Shown: positions 27,363 to 33,799, counted from the stretch's first letter. The stretch: 64,000 nucleotides of DNA from Gammaproteobacteria bacterium (GCA_965220875.1 OZ244849.1:1562979-1626978); one strand, 5' to 3'. Notes: generated from the letters alone by a model not told the origin. Numbers and translations: made by a program.

Positions 27363-28172
27363 TTACTTTCTCCGGATATTTGGCTTGACTCCGACAAGAT
27401 ACTGCCTGATTGCAATCCATGAATCCTGAATGGTTTTTTTCAGCACATCACCATCTTTTACCAGGAATTTCACCAGTAATCCGCAATGATTAGGCAGATA
27501 GGATACGCCACCGTAAACATCTTTATTCACCTGCATGCCGGATTGCAGCGACTCCAGCAAGTGCTGATGTTTGTCAGCACGGTTGATCACATAAATGGTA
27601 CCCATTCCAATATAGGAACGGTTATTGCCCAAAAAGTTTTTTGAATTTACCCGGTAAACATCTTTTGTAAGCAGCTCGGCATCTTCAGTATTAATCTGCA
27701 AGGAGCTGTTTAGCAGTTCGAACACGCGTCCATCGCCACTCAGAAAATGCAGCAGGAAAGAATCGGCGACTACTGCGGTACTGGTATCGTCTATGAATAC
27801 ATTGATTCTTGAACACAGTTTAGATTCCGGAAACAGAATCAATGGGTCAGATATGTACTCTGTATAGGAATGGCTCGTGACATTGATGTCGACTGAATGG
27901 TGCGCCATGCCATGAGGCATTCCGTGTACTATGGTTGAAGCCTGGGTAGTGACCTGGCTGTATGAACTCGAATGGGCGATAACATTTGTAGAGAGGGCTT
28001 CATCTTCATATATGCCTCCTGAAGCGGACTGGATATATATGTTTGCCATTCCGGGCGGGTCATTTTCAAAATACTGAGCCTTGCAAATATGGAAAGGATA
28101 GGCTGCATACTGATTCTTCAAGTATGTCTTTCCACCCGGACTGGTGGAAAACTCAAGTTGCAAGTTACCCAT
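27363..28172 (-). CDS. ureD: Urease accessory protein UreD/UreH
   Basis: SASGGIYEDE, QVTTQAST, DPLILFPES; last gene of the urease cluster. Confidence 0.88.
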   Translation of the reverse strand: MGNLQLEFSTSPGGKTYLKNQYAAYPFHICKAQYFENDPPGMANIYIQSASGGIYEDEALSTNVIAHSSSYSQVTTQASTIVHGMPHGMAHHSVDINVTSHSYTEYISDPLILFPESKLCSRINVFIDDTSTAVVADSFLLHFLSGDGRVFELLNSSLQINTEDAELLTKDVYRVNSKNFLGNNRSYIGMGTIYVINRADKHQHLLESLQSGMQVNKDVYGGVSYLPNHCGLLVKFLVKDGDVLKKTIQDSWIAIRQYLVGVKPNIRRK

Positions 28173-28185
28173 TCAGGCTGGTGTT

Positions 28186-28812
28186 CTAGTCGAATAGAAC
28201 GTTGTTGATGATATGGTTTGCAACCTCTTCTATGCCTTCACCCGTTTTACAATTTGTCAGCACAAGGTGTTTTCCATCCCTCACTTCAAGTCCCTCTTTC
28301 ACCATCAGGTCCACGTCTGCTCCTACAAACGGCGCCAAGTCGACTTTATTGATGACAAGCAAATCTGATTGGACGATACCGGGTCCTCTTTTGCGAGGAA
28401 TGTCGTCCCCTTCTGAAGTGTCTATCACAAACATCCAGTAATCTACGAGGTCCAGGGAAAAAGTGGATGCCAGGTTGTCTCCGCCGCTTTCTATCAGGAT
28501 AACATCCAGGTGTTCGAACTCCCTGTCCAGGTTTTCTGCAGCCTGCGAGTTCAAGGTAGGATCTTCACGGATAACTGTATGCGGACATGCGCCTGCTTCC
28601 ACTGCGACGATTCGTTCTGGGGCAAGCAATCCGGATCTTTGCAGGCGCTTTGCATCTTCTCGGGTGACCAGGTCATTCGTAATCACTGCAATTTCATTTC
28701 CCCGCTTGATAAACCGCGGGATCAGTTGCTCAATCAGGGCTGTCTTGCCCGACCCAACCGGGCCACCGATACCCACTCGTGCAGGGCCATTACGGGAATT
28801 CTGCTGGATCAT
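28186..28812 (-). CDS. ureG: Urease accessory GTPase UreG
   Basis: [30 protein letters not shown] overlap with the ureC stop. Confidence 0.96.
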
Positions 28813-31929: not shown

Positions 31930-32371
31930 GATCGATACGCTTGATCTTTCCTGTTGTGAAAAAATCTTTCAGCCTCTCAAGGTATATTTCCTCCGGGCTT
32001 TCAACCGCTATGCTGAGACACTCCTTTTCAAACTTGACTCGCCAGTGCATGTTTCCTGCAAAATAACCTATTTCGATCGCGCATGAAATGTCTCTGGGCT
32101 TGAGCCGCAGCCATTGCTCCTCGGACATTTTCACTACAACCGCACGATTACTTTCCAGCAGTAATACTGCACCGTTAGTCAACTTGGCCAGCCGTGAAAT
32201 AGAAACCGCACAGTCCGTACCCTGGTCTGTTTTGGCTCTGAAACGCCGCCGCAGCAGGTTTGAGCGGTCAAGTATTATGTATTCAACTTCATTTCGATGA
32301 GACAGGTCATGAAGCCTGCCCGACAAATTCGAGTCATGCACATGGCCAAGGATCTCTGTGATATGAATCAT
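31919..32371 (-). CDS. ureE: Urease accessory protein UreE
   Basis: RRRFRAKTDQG, GYFAGNMHW; no His-rich tail. Confidence 0.88.
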   Translation of the reverse strand: MIHITEILGHVHDSNLSGRLHDLSHRNEVEYIILDRSNLLRRRFRAKTDQGTDCAVSISRLAKLTNGAVLLLESNRAVVVKMSEEQWLRLKPRDISCAIEIGYFAGNMHWRVKFEKECLSIAVESPEEIYLERLKDFFTTGKIKRIDHDE

Positions 32372-32491
32372 GTGAGAATCGTATCTACTCTTTGATCAGT
32401 CGCAATGTGTGTCCGTGTGCATTCATCTGTTCGGGCAACGGACACGCTGTGTACTGCCATCCGGATGTATTGAGACAGGGCAGGAGGCAGG

Positions 32492-33799
32492 TCAGCAATC
32501 CATCGTGGTCTGCATTTCCCACTGGCTGAGATGGCTTGTGTAATCACGCCACTCCATCATTTTCAATTTAATATACGAATCCACGACTTCTGCACCGAGT
32601 TCGCTTCTTAATGCTCTATTCTTCTCAAGTAATCGCAGTGCGTCCAGCAGGGTAGACGGAAGCTTTTTCACATTTTTCAACTTGTCGCCCTCTTCATACA
32701 TGTTGATAAAGCTGGGTTTTCCGGGGTCCAGCTTGTTCTGGATTCCATCCAGCCCGGCCGCGATCACTGCAGCTTGTGCAAGGTAAGGGTTAGTCGCACC
32801 ATCCATCAGTCTCAGTTCGAACCGTCCATCCTCGGGAACCCGGATCATATGGGTGCGGTTGTTGCCTGAATAGGTCACTGCATTGGGCGACCAGGTGGCG
32901 CCTGAAGCAGTTCGCACTGCATCGATTCTTTTGTAACTGTTCACTGTCGGGTTGAGTATGGCACACATTGAAACGGCATGTTCCATGATGCCTCCAAGAA
33001 AATGGTAAGCCAGTTTTGACAGGCCAAGGTGATCGGACTTGTTTAGAAACAGGTTTTTTTCTCCGCTTTTGTTCCAAACAGATAGGTGTGTATGGCACCC
33101 ATTTCCCGTCAGGTTTGGAAATGGCTTGGGCATGAAGGTTGCCCGCATGCCATGATCCCCGGCAATGGTTTTTGTCATAAATTTAAAAAACACATGACGG
33201 TCAGCAGTGATCAATACGTCATTGTAATCCCAGTTCATTTCAAACTGGCCGTTGGCATCTTCGTGATCATTCTGGTACGGACCCCAGCCAAGTTTCAGCA
33301 TGCAGTCACAAATTTCCTTTACTACCGGGTAACGGCGCATCAGTGCCTGCTGGTCGTAGCAAGGCTTGGTTTGGGTGTCCAGCGGGTCCGATATGGAATT
33401 TCCATCCTGGTTGATTAAAAAGTATTCGCATTCGACACCCGTTTTGACCCGATAACCTTTCTTGTGGGCTTTGGCGATTTGTCTTTTGAGGGCAACTCTT
33501 GGAGAGGCTTCAACTTCTTTACCGTCCATCCACAGATCCGATGCCAGCCAGCCAACTTCAGGATTCCAGGGCAATTGAATCAGGCTGCCCGGATCCGGGA
33601 CTCCAAACATGTCTGAATCTGCAGGGGTCATGTCGAGCCATGCCGCGAATCCTGCAAACCCGGCGCCATCTTTTTGCATGCCTTTTATTGCATCGGCAGG
33701 AACCAGCTTTGCACGAAGCACTCCGAATAAATCTACAAAACTTATGAGAAAGTACTTGATCCCCTTGGTTTTTGCGATTTGAGCCAAATCTTTTGCCAT
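32492..33799 (-). CDS. glnT: GlnT-type glutamate-amine ligase, probably gamma-glutamylmethylamide synthetase (GmaS)
   Basis: 435 aa; KYFLISFVDLFG..RAKLVP, GAGFAGFAAWLDMTP, TKPCYDQQALMR, YQNDHEDANGQFEMNW, SGATWSPN, NNRTHMIR are signatures of the GlnT/GmaS clade rather than GlnA. Confidence 0.9.
   Translation of the reverse strand: MAKDLAQIAKTKGIKYFLISFVDLFGVLRAKLVPADAIKGMQKDGAGFAGFAAWLDMTPADSDMFGVPDPGSLIQLPWNPEVGWLASDLWMDGKEVEASPRVALKRQIAKAHKKGYRVKTGVECEYFLINQDGNSISDPLDTQTKPCYDQQALMRRYPVVKEICDCMLKLGWGPYQNDHEDANGQFEMNWDYNDVLITADRHVFFKFMTKTIAGDHGMRATFMPKPFPNLTGNGCHTHLSVWNKSGEKNLFLNKSDHLGLSKLAYHFLGGIMEHAVSMCAILNPTVNSYKRIDAVRTASGATWSPNAVTYSGNNRTHMIRVPEDGRFELRLMDGATNPYLAQAAVIAAGLDGIQNKLDPGKPSFINMYEEGDKLKNVKKLPSTLLDALRLLEKNRALRSELGAEVVDSYIKLKMMEWRDYTSHLSQWEMQTTMDC

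Follow-up and report, generated by a model that had tools for sequence, protein, structure and literature searches.

Two described systems come closest to the locus examined here. In N-methylglutamate clusters (mgsABC-gmaS-mgdABCD), gmaS encodes a glutamate-methylamine ligase, also called gamma-glutamylmethylamide synthetase. For the characterised enzyme of Rhodovulum sp. 12E13 (RhGmaS; PDB 7cql), the part of the published account available to us lists Lys30', Tyr147, Gln175, Asp177, Glu179, Glu186 and Asn188 as pocket and catalytic residues, with Ala48' and Trp300 at the positions taken in glutamine synthetase (GS) by the ammonium-binding Asp50' and the flap Glu (PMC7948447). The canonical nickel ureases (Klebsiella aerogenes UreABC, Sporosarcina pasteurii, jack bean), with their accessory proteins UreDEFG, form the other system. 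Residue roles have been assigned in the S. pasteurii enzyme, where the carbonyl and C-beta of Ala366 contact bound urea and water (PMC7433671). Judging by titles and the opening lines of abstracts, none of the papers found that mention both gamma-glutamylmethylamide synthetase and urease reports a linked gene cluster, and no paper on a sponge symbiont urease together with gmaS was found.

The window analysed here (a 64-kb stretch of gammaproteobacterial DNA) carries the ligase gene of the first and a complete nickel-urease gene set akin to the second. On its minus strand an intact GmaS-type ligase gene (32492-33799) lies upstream of ureE-ureF-ureAB-ureC-ureG-ureD (27363-32371), ureAB being a gene fusion. 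The gap between them, 32372-32491, is 120 nt, matching the initial annotation, which had put a GlnT/GmaS-clade ligase about 120 nt 5' of co-oriented ure genes. The family assignments of the ligase and ure ORFs agree with the profile matches (ORF and family-profile search). That annotation had also seen no mgs genes adjacent and no urea transporter, and both observations hold across the window: representatives of mgsA, mgsB, mgsC, mgdA and mgdC have no match anywhere in the 64 kb (tblastn, E<=1e-3), and Urt, NicO and HupE references for urea or nickel transporters give only weak matches to unrelated ABC ATPases (tblastn). The clustered gmaS, mgsABC and mgdABCD that mark an N-methylglutamate operon are found in sister genomes, not in the window.

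The block is flanked on one side by GNAT, lolC/D-like genes, msbA, lpxK and kdsB, and on the other by a tRNA-Arg(tcg) gene (27142-27218, plus strand), which forms its downstream boundary, a 169-aa ORF and msrQ/msrP. Nucleotide similarity between the window and the related genome G446 (95.6-95.7%) stops at window position 27172, within this tRNA gene. A search around the block for att-like direct repeats of the tRNA-Arg end gave only short repeats at chance level, and the cluster as a whole had no megablast match in plasmid and E. coli collections. The pairing of gmaS with the ure genes is real, since independent contigs span the junction: one of 3110 nt, from run X13 of an unrelated study, covers 31023-34114 (97 differing letters in 3,092 aligned bases, about 97% alike), and one of 924 nt, from run X7, covers 32358-33277. 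The gmaS-ureE junction is not an assembly artefact.

The ligase (435 aa) scores 671 bits against TIGR03105, for which the cut-off is 469.6, and its best solved relative is the Rhodovulum enzyme 7cql (E 3e-186). With residue numbers carried over from RhGmaS by alignment with this relative, all seven methylamine-pocket residues are present (K31, Y148, Q176, D178, E180, E187 and N189), and the GS Asp50' and flap Glu are replaced by Ala49 and Trp303. By every sequence test it is thus an ordinary GmaS, as initially annotated, and not a glutamine synthetase. Its nearest relatives, 69-82% identical, lie in mgsABC-gmaS(-mgdABCD) clusters, with mgsC directly upstream in 65 of 80; none of the 80 has a urease within 10 kb.

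The urease cassette, also on the minus strand, begins with ureE (31919-32371, 150 aa; subfamily NF009752, 174.7 bits against a cut-off of 162) and ureF (31249-31929, 226 aa; Pfam UreF, 6e-30). These are followed by ureAB (30524-31219, 231 aa; NF009671, 353.8 bits against a cut-off of 243), which encodes a fused gamma/beta structural subunit with its Urease_gamma domain at residues 1-99 and Urease_beta at 112-208, and by ureC for the catalytic alpha subunit (28809-30521, 570 aa; TIGR01792, 819 bits). Then come ureG (28186-28812, 208 aa; TIGR00101, 242 bits), whose ATG overlaps the ureC stop, and ureD (27363-28172, 269 aa; Pfam UreD, 5.5e-24), so that all four accessory genes are in the set. An ORF list gives ureG as 28186-28860 from an upstream TTG; translation from 28812 begins with M, and the UreG ORFs of relatives are 208 aa. 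By its NF009671 UreAB, NF009752 UreE, gene order and a UreC at least 75% identical to other members, the cassette falls in a fused-gamma/beta clade that, from sequence comparison, is distinct, horizontally spread and widespread. No biochemically characterised member, and no other work on this clade, turned up in the literature searched.

With positions assigned after the K. aerogenes enzyme, the nickel ligands (H139, H141, K219, H248, H274, D362) and the catalytic and flap residues (H221, D223, C321, H322, R338) of UreC are all kept. The protein was initially called divergent, which is right only in that it belongs to a separate clade differing from the canonical consensus at 57 clade-specific positions; it is no further from the solved jack bean and K. 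aerogenes chains (E about 1e-203) than an ordinary urease is, and shares 54-63% identity with canonical UreC genes. The idea that the enzyme is altered stands in a more precise form, as a consistent change in the substrate pocket across the clade, which sets it apart from all canonical ureases: all 30 of 30 clade rows have Gly where S. pasteurii has Ala366 (Gly365 in the window), and the loop bearing Ala170 (S. pasteurii numbering) has another sequence and has lost three residues in length.

In the spacer (32372-32491), where a terminator or promoter would split gmaS from the ure genes, no terminator-like or promoter-like site was found, as the initial annotation would expect for a single unit; nor was there a terminator-like site between the two genes in the related genomes G450 and G453. 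The spacer folds no better than its shuffles (z = -1.13). Its length varies, from 120 nt in the window to about 133 nt in G446, 271 nt in G450 and 246 nt in G453, and the X13 strain has two small insertions in it. A sigma-54 pattern matched 41 times in the window against 43.9 expected, with no match usefully placed and none above chance in the spacer. Upstream of gmaS there is a weak sigma-70-like promoter candidate, TTCGCA-16-TAAAAT (33850-33877, minus strand; 9 of 12 matches); it is a consensus match only, because the region holds fewer such sites (4) than shuffled sequence (10.5 expected). No block other than the ribosome-binding site is conserved upstream of gmaS in comparison with G450, or upstream of ureE among 12 aligned near relatives. 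Between 26400 and 35300 Rfam families match only the tRNA, apart from two sub-threshold matches, and there is no riboswitch upstream of gmaS or ureE. One candidate RNA, 5_ureB_sRNA antisense to ureC (38.2 bits against a gathering score of 40), is most likely coding-sequence similarity. In a coral metatranscriptome library (X20, Logan contigs), seven short contigs match the window at 90-98% (3-12 differing letters in 79-291 aligned bases); they may be DNA carry-over, and they fall on msrP, the tRNA gene and the stretch beside it, ureD, ureAB, ureF, ureE and gmaS. None crosses the gmaS-ureE spacer, so that they are uninformative for or against co-transcription.

The origin of the arrangement is suggested by its relatives, which are sponge-associated gammaproteobacteria. 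The 55 genomes of the order hold 19 gmaS copies, and gene context was examined for 12 of them, in 11 genomes. In three of these contexts gmaS is followed by ureE: G446 (99%), G450 (89%) and G453 (88%), of which G453 retains mgsABC in front of gmaS. A ligase tree groups these three with the window in one starred clade (97/91), which branches within GmaS proteins of canonical context. In four further genomes (G409, G423, G419 and G428) gmaS and ureC are co-directional and 25-40 kb apart; in the two examined in full, G409 and G423, the distance from gmaS to ureE is 29 and 38 kb, and the genes run mgsABC-gmaS-mgdA..C-SBP-urtABCDE-like-(GOGAT-like, opposite strand)-ureEF(AB)CGD-nicO. The DNA between gmaS and ureE in these sisters thus encodes binding proteins, a Urt-like importer and a set of glutamate-synthase-like proteins. 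Neither the first-copy mgdC nor the fused GXGXG/FMN gene of that interval is present in the fused genomes, which are also smaller (2.0-2.2 Mb, against 2.4-2.8 Mb in the sisters). Since the sisters keep both gene groups co-directional, the adjacency of gmaS and ureE, which arose a single time, within one three-species clade, is best explained by one deletion in a nitrogen-scavenging island. A blastn search for the deletion junction matched the three spacers only to the coding flanks of the G409 and G423 islands, with no spacer alignment. Co-occurrence was rejected as independent support: of the 16 genomes carrying this urease 15 have gmaS too, gmaS occurs without the urease in 3 and both are absent from 36, but the carriers are close kin.

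We therefore favour, at a probability of roughly 0.6, a reading in which two ordinary nitrogen-scavenging functions were joined by deletion and probably do not form a substrate-product pathway. One deletion in the common ancestor would have fused the methylamine unit to the urease cassette during genome reduction; on the window branch mgsABC upstream of gmaS is gone as well. GmaS would still trap methylamine as gamma-glutamylmethylamide, with ATP and glutamate. A divergent second NMG-like cluster, which lies about 120 kb from the locus in G446 and holds the only other NMG-like genes of that genome, would then process this product. This genome, 95.7% identical in nucleotides to the window over 16 kb, serves as proxy for all genome-wide statements. 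The second cluster, examined in G446 and G453 (with Pfam on the G446 copy only), includes a GS-like gene, GATase, GXGXG, FMN synthase, Amt and mgdABCD-like genes; the MgsC-like and MgdC-like proteins of the G446 copy show 49% and 53% identity, and genes for both are present in G446, G450 and G453. The urease would split urea, and the ammonia would pass to a type I GlnA, which is found above cut-off in these same three genomes along with a GltB-sized ORF. All seven genes are probably read from one promoter upstream of gmaS, as a nitrogen-limitation unit. G446, G450 and G453 also each encode a canonical UreC (57-58% identical), and a UrtA scoring above cut-off lies no more than about 8 kb away from it. 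Against the favoured reading, the retention of two complete ureases in streamlined genomes of 2.0-2.2 Mb suggests that the second is not redundant with the canonical one.

The initial annotation had proposed a different basis for the adjacency: the altered urease would release methylamine from N-methylurea or another N-methyl carbamoyl compound or amide, and the co-transcribed GmaS would trap it as gamma-glutamylmethylamide. Several observations are in keeping with such coupling. Replacement of Ala366 by Gly takes away a C-beta adjacent to the Ni(2)-bound position, and both this and the remodelled Ala170 loop are clade-wide changes; with a canonical urease and a true UrtA elsewhere in the same small genomes, the second enzyme may act differently. 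A GmaS-family ligase stands beside this type of urease in three independent lineages (the window clade, including G453; a plasmid of Acinetobacter; and a metagenome locus, L153, with the co-directional order ligase-ureD-ureE-ureF), and in G453 and the plasmid mgsABC is present too. At another locus (L132) and on a Shinella plasmid, N-methyl amino-acid dehydrogenase or oxidase genes (sarcosine-oxidase-like or Mgd-like) lie directly upstream of the urease. The spacer has no terminator-like site, and gmaS, kept intact after loss of its partner genes and under strong purifying selection, could have acquired a urease-tied role. Against this, a deletion in a pre-existing island, within a single clade, accounts for the adjacency, and no substitutions specific to the linkage are seen in either protein: among positions where at least 90% of 88 other GmaS sequences agree, as among UreC positions conserved in the 30 clade rows, none shows a deviation in more than one of the three linked species. 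Clade members with no gmaS nearby, wired instead to Urt, amidase, AmiC/ANTAR or ureide genes, have the pocket changes equally. A canonical urease left N-methylurea undegraded, according to the part of one report available (PMC6651757), and no paper was found that joins methylurea, urease and methylamine. Looking more widely, 44 urease loci extend 3 kb or more upstream of ureE, and a ligase is beside the urease in 5 of these, 3 of them from one lineage; the upstream genes are instead Urt-like (16 loci), an aliphatic amidase (11), an ANTAR regulator (9) or a nickel transporter (8), and in Methylobacterium radiotolerans the cluster adjoins ureide genes and urtA. The context of the clade therefore points to urea or small amides. 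GmaS-family ligases recur next to this UreC clade in no more than the three lineages named, and 0 of 80 GmaS relatives have a urease within 10 kb. On balance the coupled pathway seems unlikely, and it is equally improbable that the fused-gamma/beta clade comprises, rather than urea specialists, nickel amidohydrolases for N-substituted ureas or carbamoyl compounds such as N-methylurea, brought into one transcription unit with GmaS in the symbiont lineage so that methylamine would be captured as soon as it is released. If true, it would provide a route from breakdown products of methylated purines, creatinine or guanidine into the N-methylglutamate pathway via GmaS.

Two other explanations concern the ligase itself. 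It might work as a glutamine synthetase, trapping ammonia from the neighbouring urease. NCBI annotation does name the family type III glutamate-ammonia ligase, and the Acinetobacter plasmid genes glnT-glxBCD sit among an ammonium transporter, urease and nirBD. In the portion of the RhGmaS study available, ammonium chloride is an accepted substrate but a poor one, methylamine giving the lowest Km and NH4Cl a far higher one (PMC7948447). The absence of the GS ammonium-binding residues, the type I GlnA already present and a ligase sequence that has not changed in comparison with GmaS from within NMG operons make this role very doubtful. Alternatively, gmaS might be a functionless leftover of a dismantled methylamine operon, kept since the urease is transcribed through it. 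The first copies of mgsABC and mgdABCD are indeed gone from G446 and G450; the window and G446 share four private changes (E214G, F282L, R357L and L433M) at positions at least 90% conserved in the 88 relatives; and the root-to-tip path of gmaS exceeds that in G453 by a factor of 2-3. Yet the ORF is unbroken in three species with every catalytic and pocket residue kept, its dN/dS is 0.038 between the window and G446 (dS about 0.16) and about 0.03 against G450, and the second NMG-like cluster could use its product. The corresponding value for ureC is 0.018 (window against G446, dS about 0.16), and by these ratios both genes are under strong purifying selection, which indicates that they are in use. 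A relic is hardly credible.

If joining by deletion is the correct reading, sponge-symbiont genome reduction can weld separate methylamine and urea modules into an operon-like unit, and the locus is a caution that adjacency alone is a poor guide to function. The testable lead is the urease: a widespread and mobile fused-gamma/beta clade with a changed urea pocket, standing beside a canonical urease in small genomes, for which no substrate measurement is apparent in the literature. Should the clade act on substituted ureas, the window locus and the Acinetobacter plasmid would be natural places for a downstream route.

Compared with N-methylglutamate clusters, then, the window has the same ligase family and active-site residues and its ligase has its nearest relatives there, but it lacks mgsABC and mgdABCD and has a urease cassette after gmaS. 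With canonical nickel ureases it shares the nickel ligands and carbamylated lysine, the catalytic His, Asp and Arg, the flap Cys-His and the four accessory genes; it departs from them in the gamma/beta fusion, the order ureE-F-AB-C-G-D, the 57 clade positions, Gly for Ala366 and the shorter Ala170 loop. Fused-gamma/beta clusters on plasmids of Aminobacter, Methylobacterium, Ancylobacter and Shinella have the same gene order and UreC clade (75-78% identity to the window). They are joined to AmiC/ANTAR, Urt-like importers, aliphatic amidase, HupE/UreJ or ureide genes, whereas the window cluster has none of these neighbours and is headed by gmaS. A parallel for the pairing is the plasmid of Acinetobacter sp. 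NCu2D-2, where glnT-glxB-glxC-glxD-urtA-ureEF(AB)CGD places a GmaS-family ligase co-directionally upstream of the same type of urease, among ammonium-transporter and nitrite-reductase (nirBD) genes. That ligase retains the diagnostic GmaS residues but is only 41% identical, and it comes first, followed by the three synthase genes and urtA; the plasmid arrangement is an independent assembly.

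At this locus a methylamine ligase gene and a second urease cassette are genuinely fused, and the fusion is inherited. All genes of the locus are on the minus strand: the ligase gene, gmaS (435 aa; 32492-33799), is followed after a 120-nt gap (32372-32491) by ureE (31919-32371), ureF (31249-31929), a fused gamma/beta ureAB (30524-31219), ureC (28809-30521), ureG (28186-28812, its ATG start overlapping the ureC stop) and ureD (27363-28172). The upstream and divergent flank has a GNAT gene, lolC/D-like genes, msbA, lpxK, and kdsB; downstream are tRNA-Arg(tcg) (27142-27218), a 169-aa open reading frame (ORF) of no family, and msrQ/msrP. 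No homologs of representative mgsA, mgsB, mgsC, mgdA or mgdC, nor of Urt, NicO or HupE references, were found anywhere in the 64-kb window; by gene calls and homolog searches, the initial annotation was correct as written in placing the ligase upstream of a urease gene set with no urea transporter or mgsABC/glxBCD genes adjacent. The ligase-urease junction is not an assembly artefact, since independent contigs cross the region: a 3110-nt contig from sequencing run X13, belonging to an unrelated study and about 97% alike, bridges 31023-34114; run X7 yielded another, of 924 nt, over 32358-33277. Runs containing the sequence are mostly sponge metagenomes.

Genome G446, used as a proxy for the window's own genome, has a 99% identical ligase and the same gene order, with 95.6-95.7% nucleotide identity over 16 kb. 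This similarity ends at 27172, within tRNA-Arg(tcg); past the tRNA, the stretch at 24000-27140 (the 169-aa ORF and msrQ/msrP) has a lower G+C content (0.44-0.46), and G446 has other genes. It resembles a segment that varies between strains, situated at a tRNA gene. A 104-nt stretch between the GNAT and lolC-like genes (34846-34950) is missing from both the X13 strain contig and G446, and the gmaS-ureE spacer of the X13 strain carries two insertions (7 nt after 32417, 6 nt after 32480). Farther off (15591-17965), a gene for a 346-aa WD40 beta-propeller protein overlaps that for a 448-aa CobW-family GTPase by a few bases, here in a bacterium; the pair adjoins TonB receptor and FecCD/ABC uptake genes, which are part of G+C-rich DNA (0.61-0.66 at 8-14 kb).

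The ligase scores 671 bits against TIGR03105 (cut-off 469.6), and the solved structure nearest to it is that of Rhodovulum sp. 12E13 GmaS (RhGmaS), a characterised enzyme (7cql; E 3e-186). As described for RhGmaS (PMC7948447), the methylamine pocket consists of Tyr147, Gln175, Asp177, Glu179, Glu186, Asn188, and Lys30', while Ala48' replaces the ammonium-binding Asp50' of GS and Trp300 replaces the GS flap Glu. The window ligase carries all the counterparts (K31, Y148, Q176, D178, E180, E187, N189, A49, and W303), and departs from the 90% consensus of 80 relatives (from GTDB species genomes, 69-82% identity) at just six positions. In 65 of these 80, mgsC is directly upstream of gmaS, in arrays that join GATase, GXGXG and FMN glutamate-synthase domain genes to gmaS, and sarcosine-oxidase-like mgdABCD genes often come next; none of the 80 has a urease gene within 10 kb of gmaS.

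Urease is present in 89 of 400 sampled genomes of the class. UreC at 80-84% identity to that of the window is found in two only (G104 and G383, each with a canonical urease copy too), the remaining matches being at most 63%. The PurB proteins of these two are 55-56% identical to the window's, as against 80-84% for UreC, which indicates horizontal spread of this urease clade. Fused UreAB and the same gene order are also found on plasmids of Aminobacter, Methylobacterium, Shinella, Ancylobacter, and Acinetobacter.

When 30 clade UreC rows (two pairs being duplicates of one place) were compared with 32 canonical ones, the 90% consensus sequences differed at 57 positions; the clade has HVHFDSAQ where the canonical consensus is H-I-H-x-I-C-P-Q. 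The loop at window UreC positions 163-174, bearing the counterpart of Sporosarcina pasteurii Ala170, is three residues shorter than the canonical one (HMMER and MAFFT disagree on where the gap falls, which makes the exact Ala170 counterpart uncertain), and Gly365 occupies the Ala366 position in 30/30 rows. According to a review (PMC7433671), the Ala170 and Ala366 carbonyls are hydrogen-bond acceptors for the urea nitrogen on Ni(2), and the Ala366 C-beta touches water at the Ni(2) site. The "altered urease" of the initial annotation stands as regards a separate clade with a changed pocket, but every nickel ligand and catalytic residue is retained. Opposite the 5′ part of ureC (30081-30371, plus strand) the Rfam model for the Helicobacter 5' ureB antisense sRNA matches just short of threshold (38.2 bits; gathering score 40), most likely because the coding sequence is conserved.

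In the order with the nearest GmaS genome, 18 of 55 genomes hold 19 gmaS copies, of which the best 12 loci (11 genomes) were read. In three, ureE directly follows gmaS: G446; G450 (ligase 89%), with a GNAT gene and then gmaS-ureEF(AB)CGD, as in the window; and G453 (88%), with mgsA-mgsB-mgsC-gmaS-ureEF(AB)CGD. It does not in the other nine: six have the N-methylglutamate (NMG) pathway order mgsABC-gmaS-mgdA..D (G423, G424, G425, G409, G419, and G428, one cut by contig ends), G410 and G415 have mgsABC-gmaS and then other genes, and a second G453 copy is with mgsABC. In a maximum-likelihood tree of 19 ligase rows chosen by the analyst, one starred clade (97/91) unites the window with G446, G450, and G453, of which G453 diverges first; this clade is nested among GmaS genes in canonical contexts. 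The clade urease (UreC at least 88%) is found in 16 of the 55 genomes. In G409, G423, G419, and G428, ureC is 25-40 kb downstream of gmaS on the same strand; the islands of G409 and G423 read mgsABC-gmaS-mgdA..C, a binding protein, urtABCDE-like genes, a GATase/fused GXGXG-FMN/GltD-like set on the opposite strand, and ureEF(AB)CGD-nicO. The three linked genomes have neither the first-copy mgdC nor the fused GXGXG-FMN gene, and are 2.0-2.2 Mb in size vs. 2.4-2.8 Mb for their sisters. The fusion was most likely made by deletion, judging from these gene orders: in the simplest reading of the adjacency, a single deletion of about 29-38 kb would have occurred in the common ancestor of the linked genomes, with mgsABC then lost in the branch of G450, G446, and the window. 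The gmaS-ureE spacers, 120-271 nt in length, have no aligning counterpart in the sister islands from which the deletion junction could be placed.

In the nearest unlinked relatives (loci L130, 3909-9708, and L124, and the G409 and G423 islands), genes for a GATase, the fused GXGXG+FMN protein (653 aa), an 842-aa GltD-like protein, and a SnoaL-like protein are divergent from ureE; about 18 of the 80 GmaS loci likewise have a GltD-like homolog just before gmaS. The gene set may represent either a variant NMG synthase or a glutamate synthase in split form. UrtA/AmiC-like binding proteins and a urtBCDE-like importer are directly 3′ of mgdABCD or gmaS and co-oriented with them in the G409 and G423 islands and at locus L220 (11180-12553), which raises the question of whether the cargo might be methylamine, urea or small amides.

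Co-transcription of gmaS with the urease genes, which the initial annotation supposed, is plausible from the spacer sequences: no terminator-like site separates the two units in the window, G450 or G453. The spacer fold is unremarkable (z = -1.13), and the search of the locus for a sigma-54 pattern, a riboswitch or a conserved upstream block was negative; in G453, mgsA is preceded by a strong promoter-like site (11/12 matches). Neither partner is altered by the linkage. Of the GmaS positions at least 90% conserved in 88 others, none is changed in more than one of the three linked species, and the same is true of UreC against the 30 clade rows. Between the window and G446, with dS about 0.16 and unsaturated, gmaS has a dN/dS of 0.038 and ureC one of 0.018; both genes are therefore in use, and the gmaS value argues against a functionless leftover, which we consider highly improbable.

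Each of the linked genomes G446, G450, and G453 also has a canonical UreC (57-58% identity), no more than about 8 kb from a UrtA that exceeds its cut-off, and a type I GlnA that likewise exceeds its own. A second NMG-like cluster is about 120 kb from gmaS in G446, and its MgsC-like and MgdC-like genes are found in all three. As read in G446 and G453 (Pfam on the G446 copy only), it includes a 491-aa GS-like gene, GATase, GXGXG, an FMN synthase (49-50% to MgsC), an Amt-family transporter, and mgdABCD-like genes. With GlnA and this cluster present, there is thus a normal route for the ammonia of either urease, and the cluster is a plausible consumer of the GmaS product. The G446 copy (L230, G446:C1:240000-259999) also has a DAO oxidoreductase and a 129-aa ORF; its mgdA-B-C-D-like genes, a EutQ-like cupin, and two large family-less ORFs are divergent from the other genes of the cluster.

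The initial annotation proposed that the urease frees methylamine from N-methylurea or an N-methylated amide, to be trapped by the co-transcribed ligase as gamma-glutamylmethylamide. The altered pocket of the clade, and its retention beside a canonical urease in small genomes, leave some room for such a pathway, but the comparative evidence gives it no support, the adjacency being most likely due to deletion and no substitutions being specific to linkage; we think it unlikely. That ligase and urease each keep their ordinary function is the reading we prefer, with a probability of roughly 0.6.

Whether the clade urease is repeatedly beside methylamine genes was a check named in the initial annotation; few loci have such neighbors. 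A ureE of the clade subfamily is present at the 90 loci examined, of which 80 are metagenomic, six are on plasmids, three are in the order, and one is in a species genome. At 44 of them, the sequence upstream of ureE extends for 3 kb or more. In these 44, Urt-like genes (16), aliphatic amidase (11), ANTAR regulator (9), and nickel transporter (8) are commoner than a TIGR03105-type ligase (5), MgsC-like gene (4) or MgdC/SoxA-like gene (2). Mgd-like or Sox-like genes are directly upstream of ureE in metagenome locus L132, and near it in a Shinella plasmid. The recurrence of methylamine genes beside this urease is more than nothing, but many kinds of nitrogen genes cluster in such islands, and the commonest partners point to urea and small amides.

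No description of a gmaS-urease system was found in literature searches, judged in part from titles and the beginnings of abstracts. The five ligase loci represent three lineages, one being the G446/G450/G453 clade. The plasmid of Acinetobacter sp. NCu2D-2 has the order glnT-glxBCD-urtA-ureEF(AB)CGD, with a ligase 41% identical to the window's; metagenome locus L153 has ligase-ureD-ureE-ureF, with a ligase 47-48% identical. Both ligases keep the GmaS diagnostic residues.
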